Assembly (NCBI GenBank): GCA_037917685.1
Contig: JAVCBU010000006.1
Coordinates: 224,001 to 288,000 of the forward strand
DNA: 64,000 bases
Origin: Thermoproteota archaeon
Lineage (GTDB): Archaea > Korarchaeota > Korarchaeia > Korarchaeales > JAOZGB01
Direction of reading: 5' to 3'
The translations under genes and the position numbers were made by a program. Numbering within the stretch: the first letter of the stretch is position 1; each line of letters begins with the position of its first letter. Below are positions 3,116-19,565 of this stretch, piece after piece. A model generated the notes under the pieces. That model had not been told where the DNA came from. It searched no databases and was given only the letters and a program-made list of their open reading frames with translations.

Positions 3116-3225
3116 GCCGGGGTACCCTAGCCCGGTCAAGGGGCGGGCCTGGAGTTCATGCCCGCGAGCCCGTGGCCCCCTGAGCTTTGGGGACGGCCGC
3201 GTGGGTTCGAATCCCACCCCCGGCG
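3116..3225 (+). tRNA. tRNA-Ser(GGA) with a 37/38 intron (3155-3166) and a probable second intron in the variable arm (3183-3194)
   Basis: Acceptor GCCGGGG/CCCCGGC with G73; anticodon stem CGGGC/GCCCG; CT-GGA-G..A loop; T arm GTGGG-TTCGAAT-CCCAC; long variable arm. Confidence 0.9.
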
Positions 3226-3243
3226 TGTTAACAGGGGATAAAT

Positions 3244-3693
3244 ATGCCAGAAATGGAGAGAAGAGTTATAAGAATAGCTGGTACAACATTGGATGCGGAG
3301 AAGAAAGCACTTGTAAGCCTTACAAAGATACCGGGGATAGGTTTCACTTTATCCAACGCCATACTTAGGAGACTAAACCTCGATCCACAAAAGAAACTTT
3401 CCGAATACACCAACGAAGAAATAGAAAGGCTAGAGGAATTCTTCAAAGACCCCTATAAATACGAGCTGCCTTCGTGGCTTTATAATAGACAGAGAGACCC
3501 TATAACAGGTAAAAATTTGCTTATTCTAGGATCTGATATTAAACTGTACCAGAAGATAGATATAGACCGGCTTAAAAAGATGGGTTCATACAGGGGACTA
3601 AGACATTCCCTAGGTCTCAAGGTTAGAGGGCAAAGGACACGGACAACTGGCAGGAGAGGGCCAACAATAGGATATGTTAGGAAGAAGAAGTAG
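3244..3693 (+). CDS. rps13: 30S ribosomal protein S13
   Basis: [23 protein letters not shown]. Confidence 0.98.
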
Positions 3694-3701
3694 GTGTGAA
3701 A

Positions 3702-4205
3702 ATGGGAGACCCGAAGCAACCGAGGAAGAAATATCGAAGACCAAGAAAGCCCTGGGACAAACAGTACTTAGAATGGTCTATAAAACTGGTTGGAGAGTAT
3801 GGTCTAAGAAATAAAAGAGAACTATTAAGGGCACACCATGAAGCCAGCAGGGTTCGAAGGCTGGCGAGAATTCTACTCTCCCACACCGAGAGTAGGAACA
3901 TCAAGTTGGAAGAGCAGTTGCTGTCAAGGCTTAAAAGATTTGGAATAGTACCTGACGACGCTGTACTTGACGATGTACTCGACGTTACAGCTGAAAACTT
4001 TCTGAGAAGAAGACTCCAAACAGTAGTTTATCTCAAAGGATATGCTAAAACACCCTACCAAGCGAGGCAGCTTGTAGTACACGGACATGTCCGTGTAAAT
4101 GGGAGAATAGTCAAGATTCCTTCGTATCTTGTTAGTGTTGAGGAGGAAAATACCATAGAAGTTGATAAAGAGATACTGAACAAAATAATGGGTGAACAGT
4201 CATGA
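3702..4205 (+). CDS. rps4: 30S ribosomal protein S4
   Basis: [39 protein letters not shown]. Confidence 0.98.
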
Positions 4206-4603
4206 GTTCAAGTAAAAAGAAGGAGCACATTGGTATAGCACACATTTATTCGTCATTCAACGATACCATCGTCCATATCACAGATCAAACCGGAGCTGAG
4301 ACAATAGCAATATCGTCAGGGGGAAGATTTGTAAAAGCCGACAGGATGGAGGGCAGCCCGTATGCCGCTTTTAAAGCAGCAACTGAAGCTGCAAATATAG
4401 CGAAGAAGAAGGGGATAACATCTTTAATAGTCAAAGTCAGAGCCCCAGGAGGTTTAGGTCCTAGAATTCCAGGTCCTGGAGCCGCCGGCGCTGTAAGGGG
4501 ACTTGCAAGGGCTGGAATGAAGCTTATAAGAATAGAAGATGTGACGCCAATACCTCACGATGGAACTAGAAGGCCACATGGAAGGAGAGGTAGAAGAGTT
4601 TAA
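4202..4603 (+). CDS. rps11: 30S ribosomal protein S11
   Basis: [29 protein letters not shown]. Confidence 0.98.
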
Positions 4604-5393
4604 AATCTCATGCTTCTATTTCTCTATAGGAACTTTGGAAAGTATATCCTCAAAGATCAAAGAATACTACATATCAAGAGGATTTAAGATTGTAGGCGTT
4701 TCAAAATTTAGAGGTTTTTACTTAGAAAACCCCAAGGGGAGACTAATACTAGCTCTAATATTTGACCCACTCATAGATAACATAGAAGAGTTAGTCTCTT
4801 CAATAAAACGAAACATTAGTGATGTAAATATTATTCAGATATGGTTACCTGAGGGCGCAGAGGATTATGTCTCTACGTCGGTCTCACGCAATATTGAAAA
4901 AGGGCTTTTAATGAGAAAGGTCTCTCTGGTACCCTTTACACAGGCTGAAATTGAGTGGAAACCATACCCTTTGGAATTAAATGTAGAAATCCATAAGAAT
5001 GATGTTCAATCCGAAAAAGAGGTGATAGCCAAACAGACATATGCCGAATCTCCCATCCAAGAGTCCTCCATTAACTTGTTATTGCAGAAGTACTCTGAAA
5101 CGATCCAAGAACTAATATCCAGATTTGAATCTCTAGAAAAAACCCTAAAAAGACTAGAGGAGACATTAAAACAATCACAACCGCAACAAGTTATAAGCCA
5201 TACAACTGCTCGTGTTCAATACAATCCACCAGCGAAAGACGCGTCTAAAGAGGTAATAATAGAAAAAATCAGCACATCTGATTTACCAAAGGCCAGTCCT
5301 CACAAGGTTGGAAACATAAACGCGCTTGATGAAGCTGTCAAAAACAACCCGTGGTTCTCGATACTGAAAGAGAAAAAGAAAAGACAAAACTAA
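4560..5393 (+). CDS. Uncharacterised protein (alpha/beta N-domain, coiled coil, NPWxxIL tail); possibly arcadin-2-like; start may be ATG 4578
   Basis: 277-aa ORF filling the rps11-rpoD gap; heptad segment [23 protein letters not shown]; tail [12 protein letters not shown]. Confidence 0.8.
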
Positions 5394-5428
5394 AATCATA
5401 GCTCGGTACTATCTATAGAGGTGTCCGA

Positions 5429-6226
5429 GTGGAGATCAAAATTATTGATGCCTCAGAGCATCGGATAATATTTGAACTTTCAGATGCTAACCCGGCAATA
5501 GCCAACGCATTAAGGAGGACAATCATTTCTGAAGTTCCAACGATGGCTATCGACTACATAGTTGTGATAGAAAACAACACAATGTACTTTGACGAGCATA
5601 TAGCACATACACTTGGAATGATCCCCCTTACCACCGATCTTGAAAAGTATAATTTACCTGAGGAATGTGAATGCGGAGGATCCGGCTGCCCCCTCTGTAC
5701 TACTAGGCTTATTTTAGAGGTAGAAGCTAGAGAAGACAATACAATTGTATATTCGGGGGATCTTAAGCCCCAAGACCCGATGATAAAGCCAGTAAGATCC
5801 GATATCCCTCTATTCAAACTGAATAAACAAGACCGCATAGTTCTAGAAGCAATAGCGAGACTCGGTAGAGGAAAACAACATAGCAAATGGCAGCCAGTGG
5901 GGCCAATTGGCTATAAATACTACCCTATTGTTGAGATTGACAACTCCAAATGTAACTTATGCGGAGAGTGCATTAAGGTATGCAATAGGAGAGCCCTAAT
6001 CTTGAAAGATACAGAAATTGTTTTAGATCCATTAAAATGTTCCCTATGCAAGCTATGCGTTGAAGCATGCGACAGGAAAGCGATTTCATTAAAGATGGAC
6101 GATACAAGATTTATATTTCAATTTGAAACTACCGGTGCACTTAATCCTCAACAAATACTTCTAAAAGCCATAGAAATATTAGTCGATAAGCTTGAAAGCT
6201 TTAAAAAACAGGTAGCCGCAACGTAG
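5429..6226 (+). CDS. rpoD: RNA polymerase subunit D (Rpo3) with ferredoxin-like domain
   Basis: ANALRRTIISEVPTMAID, HSKWQP, FQFETTGAL; two CxxCxxCxxxC motifs. Confidence 0.97.
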   Translation: MEIKIIDASEHRIIFELSDANPAIANALRRTIISEVPTMAIDYIVVIENNTMYFDEHIAHTLGMIPLTTDLEKYNLPEECECGGSGCPLCTTRLILEVEAREDNTIVYSGDLKPQDPMIKPVRSDIPLFKLNKQDRIVLEAIARLGRGKQHSKWQPVGPIGYKYYPIVEIDNSKCNLCGECIKVCNRRALILKDTEIVLDPLKCSLCKLCVEACDRKAISLKMDDTRFIFQFETTGALNPQQILLKAIEILVDKLESFKKQVAAT

Positions 6227-6228
6227 CA

Positions 6229-6240
6229 AAATTTATAATA
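6229..6240 (+). promoter_or_regulatory. Probable TATA box for the tRNA-Leu/rpl18e unit
   Basis: AAATTTATAATA about 25 nt upstream of the tRNA. Confidence 0.6.
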
Positions 6241-6262
6241 CCCCCAGAGTATAAAATACCAT

Positions 6263-6359
6263 GCGGAGGTAGCCAAGCCTGGTCAAAGGCGCGGGAATGA
6301 GGAGAAACTTGTAGATCCCGTCCCTGAGGGGTTCGTGGGTTCGAATCCCACCCTCCGCA
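6263..6359 (+). tRNA. tRNA-Leu(GAG) with 12-nt 37/38 intron (6303-6314)
   Basis: Acceptor GCGGAGG/CCTCCGC with A73; stem CGGGA/TCCCG; Leu-type variable arm TCCCTGAGGGGTTC; T arm GTGGG-TTCGAAT-CCCAC; typical rpoD-tRNA-Leu-rpl18e position. Confidence 0.9.
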
Positions 6360-17254: not shown

Positions 17255-18295
17255 GTGAGAAAACTAAAAATTGGAATCATCGGATGCGGGTCGGTAGCTT
17301 TAAAGGGGCATATTCCAGCATGGAACTTGTTTAACAATGTTATCCTAGCAGCGGCAGCGGACCCAGATCCAGTTGCAAGGAAAAAATGTAAGAAATATGT
17401 AGATAACCTTTACGATGACTACAGGGAAATGTTAATGAAGGAGGAGCTTGATATCGTTGACATATGCACTCCTCCTCATTTGCATCATGATGTGTGCTTA
17501 CATGCGGTTGAGCGTGGTGTTAATATCCTTGTGGAGAAGCCGATGGCTATATCTAAAAATCAAGCAATCGAAATGGTTGATAAGGCTCATAAATATGGTG
17601 TAAAACTTTGTGTGATGCAAAATCATCGTTATATACCCGTAGTCATGGTTGCTAAGAAGATTGTTGATAGTGGGGGGCTGGGCTCTATTGTTGGAGTTTC
17701 AGGTCAATTGTTTCTTCCTCCCCCGTTTGGCTGGACCTATTCTACGTGGCCCTTTGAAAGAAGTAAGGGGGGAGGTGTTGTCTTTAACGTAGCTATACAT
17801 GTTATTGATCTTGCTTTATGGTTTGCAGGGGACGTTGAAAGTGTTTTTGCTTATGGAGGGGATTTTCTTGGTAGAATGGACATCGAAGGATACTTTTCAG
17901 CTCTGTTAAAGTTTAATAACAAGGCAATCGGTGTAATTGAGTCGTCATGGTACAATGGAGGACTTAGGAGCACCTTCGAGCTCAGGGGAACTGGCGGCGA
18001 AATCAAAATCGACCTAAGAAATAATCATATGTTAAGGTACTCTAGCTATCTAACCCCCTATGAAGAGGTTAAATCGTTGCTGTCCAAATTTTTAAAGGTC
18101 GGATTAGAGGTTGTTAAAAAGAAATATTTTAAAGGGTTCTTAGCATACCAAGCTAGGCTTATAGGCGACTTCATAAATTCGATAGTTAACGATACCCAGC
18201 CCCCTGTGCCCGGTGAGGATGGGTTAAAATCGGTATCTGTTGCTGAGTCTATCTCACTATCTATAATAAAAAATGCTCCGGTCCGGGTTACTTAA
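17255..18295 (+). CDS. Gfo/Idh/MocA family NAD(P)-dependent oxidoreductase
   Basis: GIIGCG, ICTPPHLH, VEKPMA, HVIDL. Confidence 0.93.
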   Translation: MRKLKIGIIGCGSVALKGHIPAWNLFNNVILAAAADPDPVARKKCKKYVDNLYDDYREMLMKEELDIVDICTPPHLHHDVCLHAVERGVNILVEKPMAISKNQAIEMVDKAHKYGVKLCVMQNHRYIPVVMVAKKIVDSGGLGSIVGVSGQLFLPPPFGWTYSTWPFERSKGGGVVFNVAIHVIDLALWFAGDVESVFAYGGDFLGRMDIEGYFSALLKFNNKAIGVIESSWYNGGLRSTFELRGTGGEIKIDLRNNHMLRYSSYLTPYEEVKSLLSKFLKVGLEVVKKKYFKGFLAYQARLIGDFINSIVNDTQPPVPGEDGLKSVSVAESISLSIIKNAPVRVT

Positions 18296-19565
18296 AAAAG
18301 ATCCACCCCTCCATCACGTTCCAGTCCCATCCATAGCTGTCTGGAACGGCAGCGCCATATACGATGGTTCCTCTCCATACTGAATACTTTGGATCTTTAA
18401 CCATTCTTACATTAACATTCTCCAGCCCTAGTTCTTTCATCATTAACTTAACCTTTGTTGGGGCATCTACAGCTATATCCGAAAGCTTCCTGGGAACCTT
18501 CCAGCTGAAACTCCCGCCGGAGAGGATAATCTGCTTATAAAGTTCAGCCTGTATTTCAACCGCGCACAGTTCAACTGCCGTTCTAATCGCTTCAGACAGT
18601 TTTGCCTTACCAGGTACGACCCTATTACCTATAACTGTGTCGTTTGGAGGTGGGAAACCTCTAGTATAATAGCTTTCAAATATCTCATGTGAAGGATTGA
18701 ACATATATTCCCCTATTAGAAATCTCTGCCATGCCTTATCGCCCATGTCTATTTCAACCATTGTTCCAGGAATCCTAAATTTTCCACTTATCCTCTCTGG
18801 GTACATTCTACACCAATCTATGGCTTTATCCAGTGCTACAGGTATTAGGCCGGCTTGTTCTTTGAAGAGAGTGACAAGCTTCTCCTCCCTAGCTAGGTCT
18901 GAATAGCCCAGATCTCTAAGAATCTGTCTTGTAATAGCGTTCGAATCACTTCCTCCACGGTTTAGAGGTATCAGAGCCGTCCTAATTATATCCCTGCTAA
19001 TAGGGGCTATTTGCGTGTTGCCGTGGCCGCCCTCAATTACAATACAAGTTGTAGCCCCCTCAGCTATAGCAACAGATAGAGGCTGAGGGATTATAGTGAA
19101 GGCTTTTATTAGTCCCGTTTCTGCCTCGACTTCCCTATGGATTTCTATAAGCCTTTCATACATATATCGTGGAGCCTGAGCTGCAAGTGCCGCAACTACA
19201 TAGTACCCGTTAAAATCTCTAAATTTTTCATCCTCCATGGGGGGTTTAAACTTCTGTATCCCGTATCTAGTAAGTTCTTTAACAACGAGCCATCCCCTCT
19301 CATCTTTTCTTTCAACTACGCCGTTCCGCATCGGATAATAAAGCCTCACAAGCTCATCTCTAGACTCTATATACTTCGGTACTTCTGGTCCTACGATGAC
19401 CTCCTTTTCCTCGTAGCCTCTTATCTCAGAAATAACACGGGACATCCTCGGGAAATACCCCCTGTTTTCTACAATTTCGGGTTTGTCACCAAGCCAGCCA
19501 GGCCCATACTTATACAACGAAGTGCCGTAGTCTTCTCCGAATACTTGAGCTACACTCCTCCCCAC
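18288..19565 (-). CDS. Crenactin (archaeal actin homolog)
   Basis: DYGTSLYKYGP, YPMRNGV, IPQPLSVAIAE, IEGGHGNTQIAPIS, LNRGG, RFLIGE, IILSGGSFSW, YSVWRG, EGW all match crenactin motifs. Confidence 0.95.
   Translation of the reverse strand: MGRSVAQVFGEDYGTSLYKYGPGWLGDKPEIVENRGYFPRMSRVISEIRGYEEKEVIVGPEVPKYIESRDELVRLYYPMRNGVVERKDERGWLVVKELTRYGIQKFKPPMEDEKFRDFNGYYVVAALAAQAPRYMYERLIEIHREVEAETGLIKAFTIIPQPLSVAIAEGATTCIVIEGGHGNTQIAPISRDIIRTALIPLNRGGSDSNAITRQILRDLGYSDLAREEKLVTLFKEQAGLIPVALDKAIDWCRMYPERISGKFRIPGTMVEIDMGDKAWQRFLIGEYMFNPSHEIFESYYTRGFPPPNDTVIGNRVVPGKAKLSEAIRTAVELCAVEIQAELYKQIILSGGSFSWKVPRKLSDIAVDAPTKVKLMMKELGLENVNVRMVKDPKYSVWRGTIVYGAAVPDSYGWDWNVMEGWIFFK

Follow-up and report, generated by a model that had tools for sequence, protein, structure and literature searches.

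A probable arcadin-2 counterpart encoded between rps11 and rpoD in a korarchaeal ribosomal gene cluster

We analysed a 64,000-nucleotide stretch of a korarchaeal genome (GenBank assembly GCA_037917685.1, contig JAVCBU010000006.1, positions 224,001 to 288,000 of the forward strand; hereafter the window), in which an open reading frame (ORF) for a protein of 277 amino acids, at 4560..5393, lies between the ribosomal protein gene rps11 and the RNA polymerase gene rpoD. The window also encodes crenactin, the archaeal actin, one of the prokaryotic proteins most closely related to eukaryotic actin. We consider it probable, at roughly 0.8, that this ORF is the korarchaeal version of the gene for arcadin-2, a protein that regulates crenactin. 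The protein is most likely a very divergent arcadin-2 relative with a tail that plugs the crenactin groove.

The accessible passages of Izore et al. (2016, PMC5173319) describe arcadin-2 of Pyrobaculum calidifontis as a core followed by a linker, not conserved and presumably without structure, and a small conserved C-terminal helix. In these passages the tryptophan of the tail peptide (R187 to R203, dissociation constant 31 nM) sits in the hydrophobic groove of crenactin, and both groove binding and filament depolymerisation are given as demonstrated for the Pyrobaculum protein. The window protein likewise has an alpha/beta core and a long helix, after which come a linker that is not conserved and a short, conserved helix at the C-terminus that bears the key tryptophan. 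Furthermore, it shares the tail core N-[P/E]-W-x-x-[I/V/L]-L, with basic residues behind it, is predicted by modelling to use the same crenactin groove, and is of a kind found only where crenactin is. It differs in its length (277 against about 200 amino acids), in its core domain, which has no detectable sequence similarity to that of arcadin-2, and in the residue before the tryptophan, which is proline in place of the glutamate of the Pyrobaculum type, although NPW occurs in many Thermoproteales too. It also differs in genomic position, as the gene belongs to the rps13-rps4-rps11-rpoD cluster and not to an arcade cluster, with crenactin, placed about 13 kb away in a preliminary description of this sequence, encoded at a distance of 12.9 kb on the minus strand.

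We found that the sequence link to arcadin-2 lies in the tail. Its core, N263-P-W265-F-S-I-L269, is encoded at 5346-5366, and the span 5328-5393 assigned to it in the preliminary description indeed covers residue 259, which starts at 5334, to the stop codon at 5391-5393. The same description had cited an arcadin-2 peptide with the pattern N-x-W-x-x-I-L-basic, and this peptide agrees with the tail of a 203-amino-acid protein encoded beside crenactin at another locus (L101:2805-3416). With arginines at positions 187 and 203, the L101 protein fits the published arcadin-2 peptide as it appears in the accessible part of PMC5173319. At Thermoproteales loci, more generally, a gene for 193-249 amino acids adjoining crenactin has [DEN]N[EP]W[VIL]x[ILV]L and then basic residues at its end. 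When a 28-row korarchaeal alignment (A2) was compared by hhalign with a 25-row alignment of Thermoproteales arcadin-2, the two matched at 93.9% (E 1.5e-7) over 23 C-terminal columns, and when the 4823 six-frame ORFs of the window genome were scored with a hidden Markov model (HMM) of the 25 Thermoproteales arcadin-2 sequences, the window ORF came out on top (E 6.3e-7, against 0.14 for the runner-up).

The tail residues E258, N263, P264, W265 and L269, together with L192 and L199, are invariant across the 28 korarchaeal sequences of A2, and N, W and L are invariant among 48 tails of three lineages. In the window genome (1.81 Mb) the tail profile finds exactly one site. We take the motif to exceed chance: among 4835 six-frame ORFs with a minimum of 60 amino acids, 2 have the bare N[PE]Wxx[ILVF]L, with 1.2 expected from composition, and in the second of these, of 109 amino acids, it is internal. 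A tblastn search of the ORF against crenactin loci returned tail-only matches, which fell in the genes that immediately follow crenactin in genome bins of Nitrososphaeria. Sequence comparison supports the view that the tail of the window protein is the same conserved C-terminal module as the tail of Thermoproteales arcadin-2.

Docking of residues 236-277 with crenactin scored 0.89, 0.89 and 0.88, compared with 0.01 for the best of three controls and 0.00 for a control in which chain 1 was replaced. The runs agree in at least 81% of their contacts, with a predicted local distance difference test (pLDDT) score of 69-70 for the partner. Of 80 solved complexes 58 reach the mark used, as do 2 of 110 mismatched pairs. 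In these models the C-terminal stretch (residues 248-275) forms the interface, and W265 and L269 are placed in the crenactin groove, as the preliminary description had anticipated, where they would contact crenactin residues 166-172 and 401-408. Of these groove residues, A166, I167 and Y403 do not vary in any of the crenactins compared (30 korarchaeal and 30 Thermoproteales), and G404 is present in 30 of 30 and 29 of 30, respectively.

Next we consider the distribution of the tail relative to crenactin. In a sample of 401 Thermoproteota genomes, centred on genome G043 and including 40 with crenactin above the curated cut-off, the tail profile matches 137 genomes and crenactin 140; 136 have both, 4 crenactin alone, 1 the tail alone (E 6.5e-4) and 260 neither, counts that overstate independence because the compared genomes are kin and that do not amount to a formal test. 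Homologues common in archaea without crenactin, which had been named as an observation that would speak against the link, were not what we found, as the tail is present in 136 of 140 crenactin-positive and in 1 of 261 crenactin-negative genomes. The window's own phylum as defined by GTDB holds 43 genomes, of which 41 have crenactin and 40 have the tail.

Within this phylum the S11-ORF-RpoD arrangement is class-wide, present in at least 35 genomes, and is not a one-off insertion. S11 was found in 40 of the 43 genomes. RpoD lies 829-1192 nucleotides downstream of S11 in 29 of 30 S11 loci, the remaining one being cut by a contig end, and a single ORF of 255-369 amino acids fills each of the 29 gaps. 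All but one of these ORFs (28/29) end in NPW[AVF]x[IV]L plus charged or basic residues. The exception, in genome G030 (locus L077, G030:C33:16259-17129), has a body that runs to profile position 265 and a tail in a separate 47-amino-acid frame; because body and tail are in different frames this copy looks frameshifted, which indicates a frameshift or an assembly error. The same arrangement recurs in seven of ten further S11 loci, including the single-contig genome G013 and a class-level relative, while one of the other three is truncated and two, from another class, are without RpoD after S11. Apart from one close relative (73%), these proteins share only 15-24% identity with that of the window. 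Of the 43 genomes, 39 are matched by a full-length profile and 40 by a tail-only profile, the misses of the latter being two genomes in which S11 was not found and one with a cut S11 locus.

In other classes of the phylum the tail gene has other placements, outside the S11-RpoD interval. In genome G003 a tail gene (L129:3648-4382) follows L3-L4-L2-S19 and precedes S25e. Its product matches an HMM of Thermoproteales arcadin-2 built without the tail at E 6.9e-9, which points to a canonical arcadin-2 that is likewise among ribosomal genes. In G001 the tail gene (L130:2-385) stands before an ORF that shares N-terminal sequence with the S25e of G003, with a likely RpoD 2.7 kb downstream, both judged by eye. 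In G002 the tail (G002:C9:403239-403301) is elsewhere in the genome and a PspA/IM30 gene follows S11.

The AlphaFold model of the window protein agrees with the architecture read from the sequence in the preliminary description, namely an alpha/beta N-domain, a coiled coil, a linker and a terminal amphipathic helix (Table 1). The order of elements is identical in the models of the window ORF (m79003c1c03e6) and of arcadin-2 L101 (mc2ac32efdc40), at offsets of 20-27 residues, save for an extra helix-strand pair of arcadin-2 (residues 96-102 and 103-107) before the long helix. Giving the window protein before arcadin-2 in each case, this order comprises a first helix (23-39 and 3-15), three strands (43-48, 52-56, 62-67 and 19-24, 27-32, 35-42), a second helix (75-85 and 49-60), a fourth strand (91-96 and 66-71), a helix pair (100-103, 106-110 and 73-78, 81-87), a fifth strand (116-120 and 89-94), the long helix (168-205 and 121-171), a linker that is of low confidence in the former and disordered in the latter, and the terminal helix (253-261, 264-275 and 194-201). 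The listed invariant or near-invariant columns of the N-domain are only W95 in A2 and G17, G90, K66 and A70 in alignment A4.

Foldseek searches with the window model returned weak restriction-endonuclease-like matches, the best being 2zyz_A at E 0.025, and the order of elements in this model is compatible with the a-b-b-b-a-b core of the PD-(D/E)XK superfamily. With the arcadin-2 L101 model there were five matches at E 1e-3 or better (XisH, AF2093 and SPO1766, PDB 3dnx), and 2zyz_A was again found; XisH and AF2093 reached E 1e-4, and BamHI, FokI and splicing endonucleases were also matched. The arcadin-2 core is accordingly modelled as a predicted restriction-endonuclease-like fold, a statement that we did not see in the searchable passages of the arcadin literature. 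The window model also gave weak matches to the Rpb5 N-terminal domain (E 0.1-0.9), and because of this weakness an Rpb5-like reading of the N-domain was set aside.

Besides the kinship of the compared genomes, several observations weigh against identifying the protein as an arcadin-2 counterpart. With N-domain-only profiles the match has E 0.14 and a score of 14.3, compared with 12.3-12.6 for reversed controls and at most 12.4 for 20 column shuffles, and the tail-less arcadin-2 HMM has no match in the window genome. An hhalign result of 93.9% (E 1.6e-7) standing beside an N-domain alignment was rejected as N-domain homology because reruns place the score on the tail. The arcadin-2 profile comparison suggested in the preliminary description was borne out for the tail, in both hhalign and the HMM search, and stayed at control level for the N-domain sequence; orthology of the N-domain with arcadin-2 is likely but unproven. 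A word-index homologue search found two relatives, at 74-76% identity, and a three-sequence HMMER profile run against 1.84 billion representatives matched the window protein alone. Mean pLDDT is 63.5 for the window model and 82 for that of arcadin-2 L101, and Foldseek gave the window model no match at E 1e-3 or better. The counts behind the docking mark serve only roughly because our own alignment was used. Since a like complex has already been solved, docking shows likeness and is not proof of binding, and the pass may be a memory of the solved crenactin:arcadin-2 peptide complex. The window gene is outside any arcade cluster, and the neighbours of crenactin are unrelated. Finally, a sequencing-run lookup for 3200-6300 listed two DNA runs, possibly the source of the sequence, and no RNA run.

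Family searches of the window ORF were similarly empty. Pfam and NCBIfam gave no family and only sub-threshold coiled-coil matches, and a PDB sequence search gave none below E 0.1, the 17-residue arcadin-2 peptide chain being too short for the library. These failures are a sign of divergence, not of isolation.

We weighed three other explanations of these data. The tail alone may be shared, the protein being a korarchaeal invention or a domain-swapped chimera that acquired a docking peptide; it would then be a crenactin binder but no orthologue of arcadin-2, with an N-domain that could have a different role. The control-level similarity of the N-domain sequences fits this, as does the presence of the tail on unrelated N-domains (membrane-spanning, RHH, C2H2 zinc-finger and HTH, described below). 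However, the predicted secondary structure matches arcadin-2 in order and lengths across the N-domain, both models fall in the restriction-endonuclease-like fold class, and the G003 tail protein, from the same phylum, combines a canonical arcadin-2 N-domain with a place among ribosomal genes. In addition, the tail profile shows no second tail-bearing gene in the window genome that could be the 'real' arcadin-2, and we regard a shared tail alone as an unlikely explanation.

An accessory factor of transcription or translation, whose crenactin-like tail is coincidental or meant for another partner, could account for the operon position kept across the class and for the Rpb5 matches, which come from Pol I, II, IV and V structures. 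We find this very improbable: the Rpb5 matches lack significance and share their general fold class with the rest of the matches, the tail tracks crenactin in the counts given above, most Thermoproteota tail genes adjoin crenactin and are not in ribosomal operons, and the docking is predicted to be specific to crenactin, given the chain-1-replaced control. That the ORF is no real gene, or a decaying remnant, can be given almost no weight. It has no Pfam or NCBIfam family, and the word-index search yielded just the two close relatives, yet 35 genomes keep an open frame of 255-369 amino acids at this site, its tail invariant, and a single copy, that of G030, appears frameshifted.

As a korarchaeal arcadin-2, the protein would consist of four parts: an N-domain of about 100 residues with an alpha/beta, restriction-endonuclease-like fold, a long helix that is probably a coiled coil, a disordered, fast-evolving linker and a conserved C-terminal amphipathic helix. 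By analogy with Pyrobaculum arcadin-2, the terminal helix would place W265 and L269, along with F266 and I268, in the hydrophobic groove that lies between subdomains IA and IIA of crenactin. In that position it would be a competitor of the D-loop from the neighbouring crenactin subunit, which could lead to monomer sequestration or filament disassembly. The N-domain and coiled coil presumably serve to dimerise or localise the protein. The interpretation offered in the preliminary description is largely upheld by these results. Its idea that the gene's place in the operon ties the cytoskeleton to growth rate is speculation.

Table 1. Positions of the arcadin-2-like gene, its predicted parts, the flanking cluster genes and crenactin in the window
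Feature	Position	Strand	Evidence
Arcadin-2-like gene, 277 amino acids, ATG start	4560..5393	+	ORF call; S11-RpoD counterparts at 29/30 loci; best match of the Thermoproteales arcadin-2 HMM, E 6.3e-7
N-terminal alpha/beta domain, residues 23-120, order a-b-b-b-a-b-a-a-b	4626..4919	+	AlphaFold pLDDT 76-89 over residues 21-100, then 65 and 71 in the last two blocks
Long helix, residues 168-205, probable coiled coil	5061..5174	+	AlphaFold helix; L192 and L199 invariant in A2
Linker, residues 208-251, poorly conserved, low confidence	5181..5312	+	pLDDT <50 at 208-221 and 225-251; length and sequence variable in A2
C-terminal amphipathic helices, residues 253-275, putative crenactin-groove peptide	5316..5384	+	Helices 253-261 and 264-275; docking interface residues 248-275
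rps13	3244-3693	+	Pfam Ribosomal_S13; upstream, same cluster
rps4	3696-4205	+	Pfam S4; upstream, same cluster
rps11	4202..4603	+	Pfam Ribosomal_S11, 139 bits; 44-nucleotide overlap with the start of the arcadin-2-like ORF
rpoD (RNA polymerase subunit D with 4Fe-4S insert)	5429..6226	+	Pfam RNA_pol_L, RNA_pol_A_bac, Fer4
Crenactin, proposed partner	18288..19565	-	NCBIfam crenactin, 579 bits, cut-off 630; single copy in genome

The order of genes at the locus is Cbf5, S13, S4, S11, the arcadin-2-like ORF, RpoD, L18e, L13, S9 and aIF5A. The interruption of the rps13-rps4-rps11-rpoD order by an ORF overlapping rps11, as first described, is confirmed, and 35 nucleotides separate the stop of this ORF from the start of rpoD. 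Because of the overlap, the short gap and the shared strand, the ORF is probably co-transcribed with rps13-rps4-rps11 and rpoD. A promoter and terminator scan stayed at the level of shuffled sequence (8 against 9.2 and 5 against 5.5, respectively) and, as its patterns follow the bacterial consensus, carries no information for an archaeon. The overlap (4560-4603) was seen only in the window and in a genus-level relative (L050). In the other sampled genera the listed ORF starts beyond the point where the S11 match ends (in G013, for example, 65 nucleotides past the S11 stop), so that the first ATG in the window could lie upstream of the true start. Crenactin itself is flanked by Ogt and a GFO-type oxidoreductase and adjoins no arcadin gene, and a scan of korarchaeal crenactin loci found no tail-bearing ORF nearby.

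The tail is demonstrably modular, because it is carried on unrelated N-domains. Two korarchaeal genomes encode RHH proteins that end in it (G007, L131:3285-3737, 150 amino acids; G039, L134:3100-3528, minus strand, 142 amino acids), with RHH_1 matches of 30.7 and 25.7 bits against a Pfam cut-off of 20.5. The tails of both differ little from that of the arcadin-2-like protein of the same host, and a radical-SAM gene adjoins both, with a phage-integrase-family gene also in G007. Such an RHH and tail gene looks like a mobile element's ParR-like adaptor for host crenactin.

Many crenactin-bearing Thermoproteota genomes have 2-5 tail-bearing ORFs (loci L137-L152, in G128, G136, G198, G219, G253, G337, G361, G379, G385, G391, G409 and G414). 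The small proteins among them (113-184 amino acids) have a DNA-binding domain and a coiled coil together with the tail LP[SD][FY]xxxNPWxx[IV]L. Domains above the Pfam cut-offs are the C2H2 zinc finger (L139, L145) and HTH_23 (L140, L152), and MazE/AbrB-like matches are weak. In Nitrososphaeria bins the tail gene lies directly downstream of crenactin (L015:3997-4863, L016:11572-12636, L017:8355-9017, L018:2275-3540), and its product has a strongly hydrophobic N-terminal half, membrane-spanning as judged by eye, followed by a coiled coil and the NPW tail, with a long basic or proline-rich extension beyond the tail in L016 and L018. This protein would be a membrane-anchored partner of crenactin.

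Known systems offer parallels for such a peptide. In the accessible passages of PMC5173319, the C-terminal helix of ParR occupies the groove of the actin-like ParM (PDB 4A62) in the same orientation as arcadin-2. The eukaryotic sequesterers thymosin beta-4 and WH2 proteins place a short helix in the groove between actin subdomains 1 and 3, blocking longitudinal contacts, with the thymosin peptide in reverse orientation (same passages), and they have no sequence relation to the window protein. As an RHH DNA-binding adaptor, ParR links DNA to filaments, whereas the window protein has no recognised DNA-binding domain; the RHH, zinc-finger and HTH proteins with the same tail are found in related genomes, none of them in this window. 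ParR binds the equivalent groove of ParM, and the DNA-binding tail proteins would be natural candidates for adaptors in crenactin-based DNA segregation.

A broader proposal, which we hold only tentatively and think doubtful at present, is that the NPWxx[IV]L tail is a portable crenactin-docking peptide with several users, the window gene included, in which the korarchaeal sequesterer is wired into an operon and the DNA-binding tail proteins are ParR-like adaptors. On this proposal the latter would hitch chromosomes or mobile elements to host crenactin filaments. The sequesterer is placed in a ribosomal and RNA polymerase operon, and therefore its dose would follow growth rate and might set the free crenactin pool.

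The literature covered here consists of passages of PMC5173319, 10.1101/2022.04.06.487207, PMC10936438, PMC7613921, PMC12222021 and PMC8970359. In this searchable part neither an arcadin-2 from korarchaeotes nor a gene of this kind at the present operon position is described, although Ettema et al. 2011 and all supplementary tables are outside it and may list a korarchaeal arcadin-2. DNA-binding proteins with an arcadin-2 tail are likewise not described there, supplementary files being outside its scope.

According to these passages, arcadin-2 is the sole crenactin regulator with a worked-out mechanism. Our results suggest that its putative crenactin-binding module reaches well beyond the Thermoproteales arcade cluster and is near-universal in a second phylum (40 of 43 genomes). 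A gene of this kind inside a ribosomal protein and RNA polymerase operon offers a testable route for coupling the cytoskeleton to growth. As the tail follows crenactin almost one to one across the 401 genomes, it is usable as a signature for further crenactin partners, and the DNA-binding proteins that carry it could reveal an actin-based system of DNA segregation in archaea.

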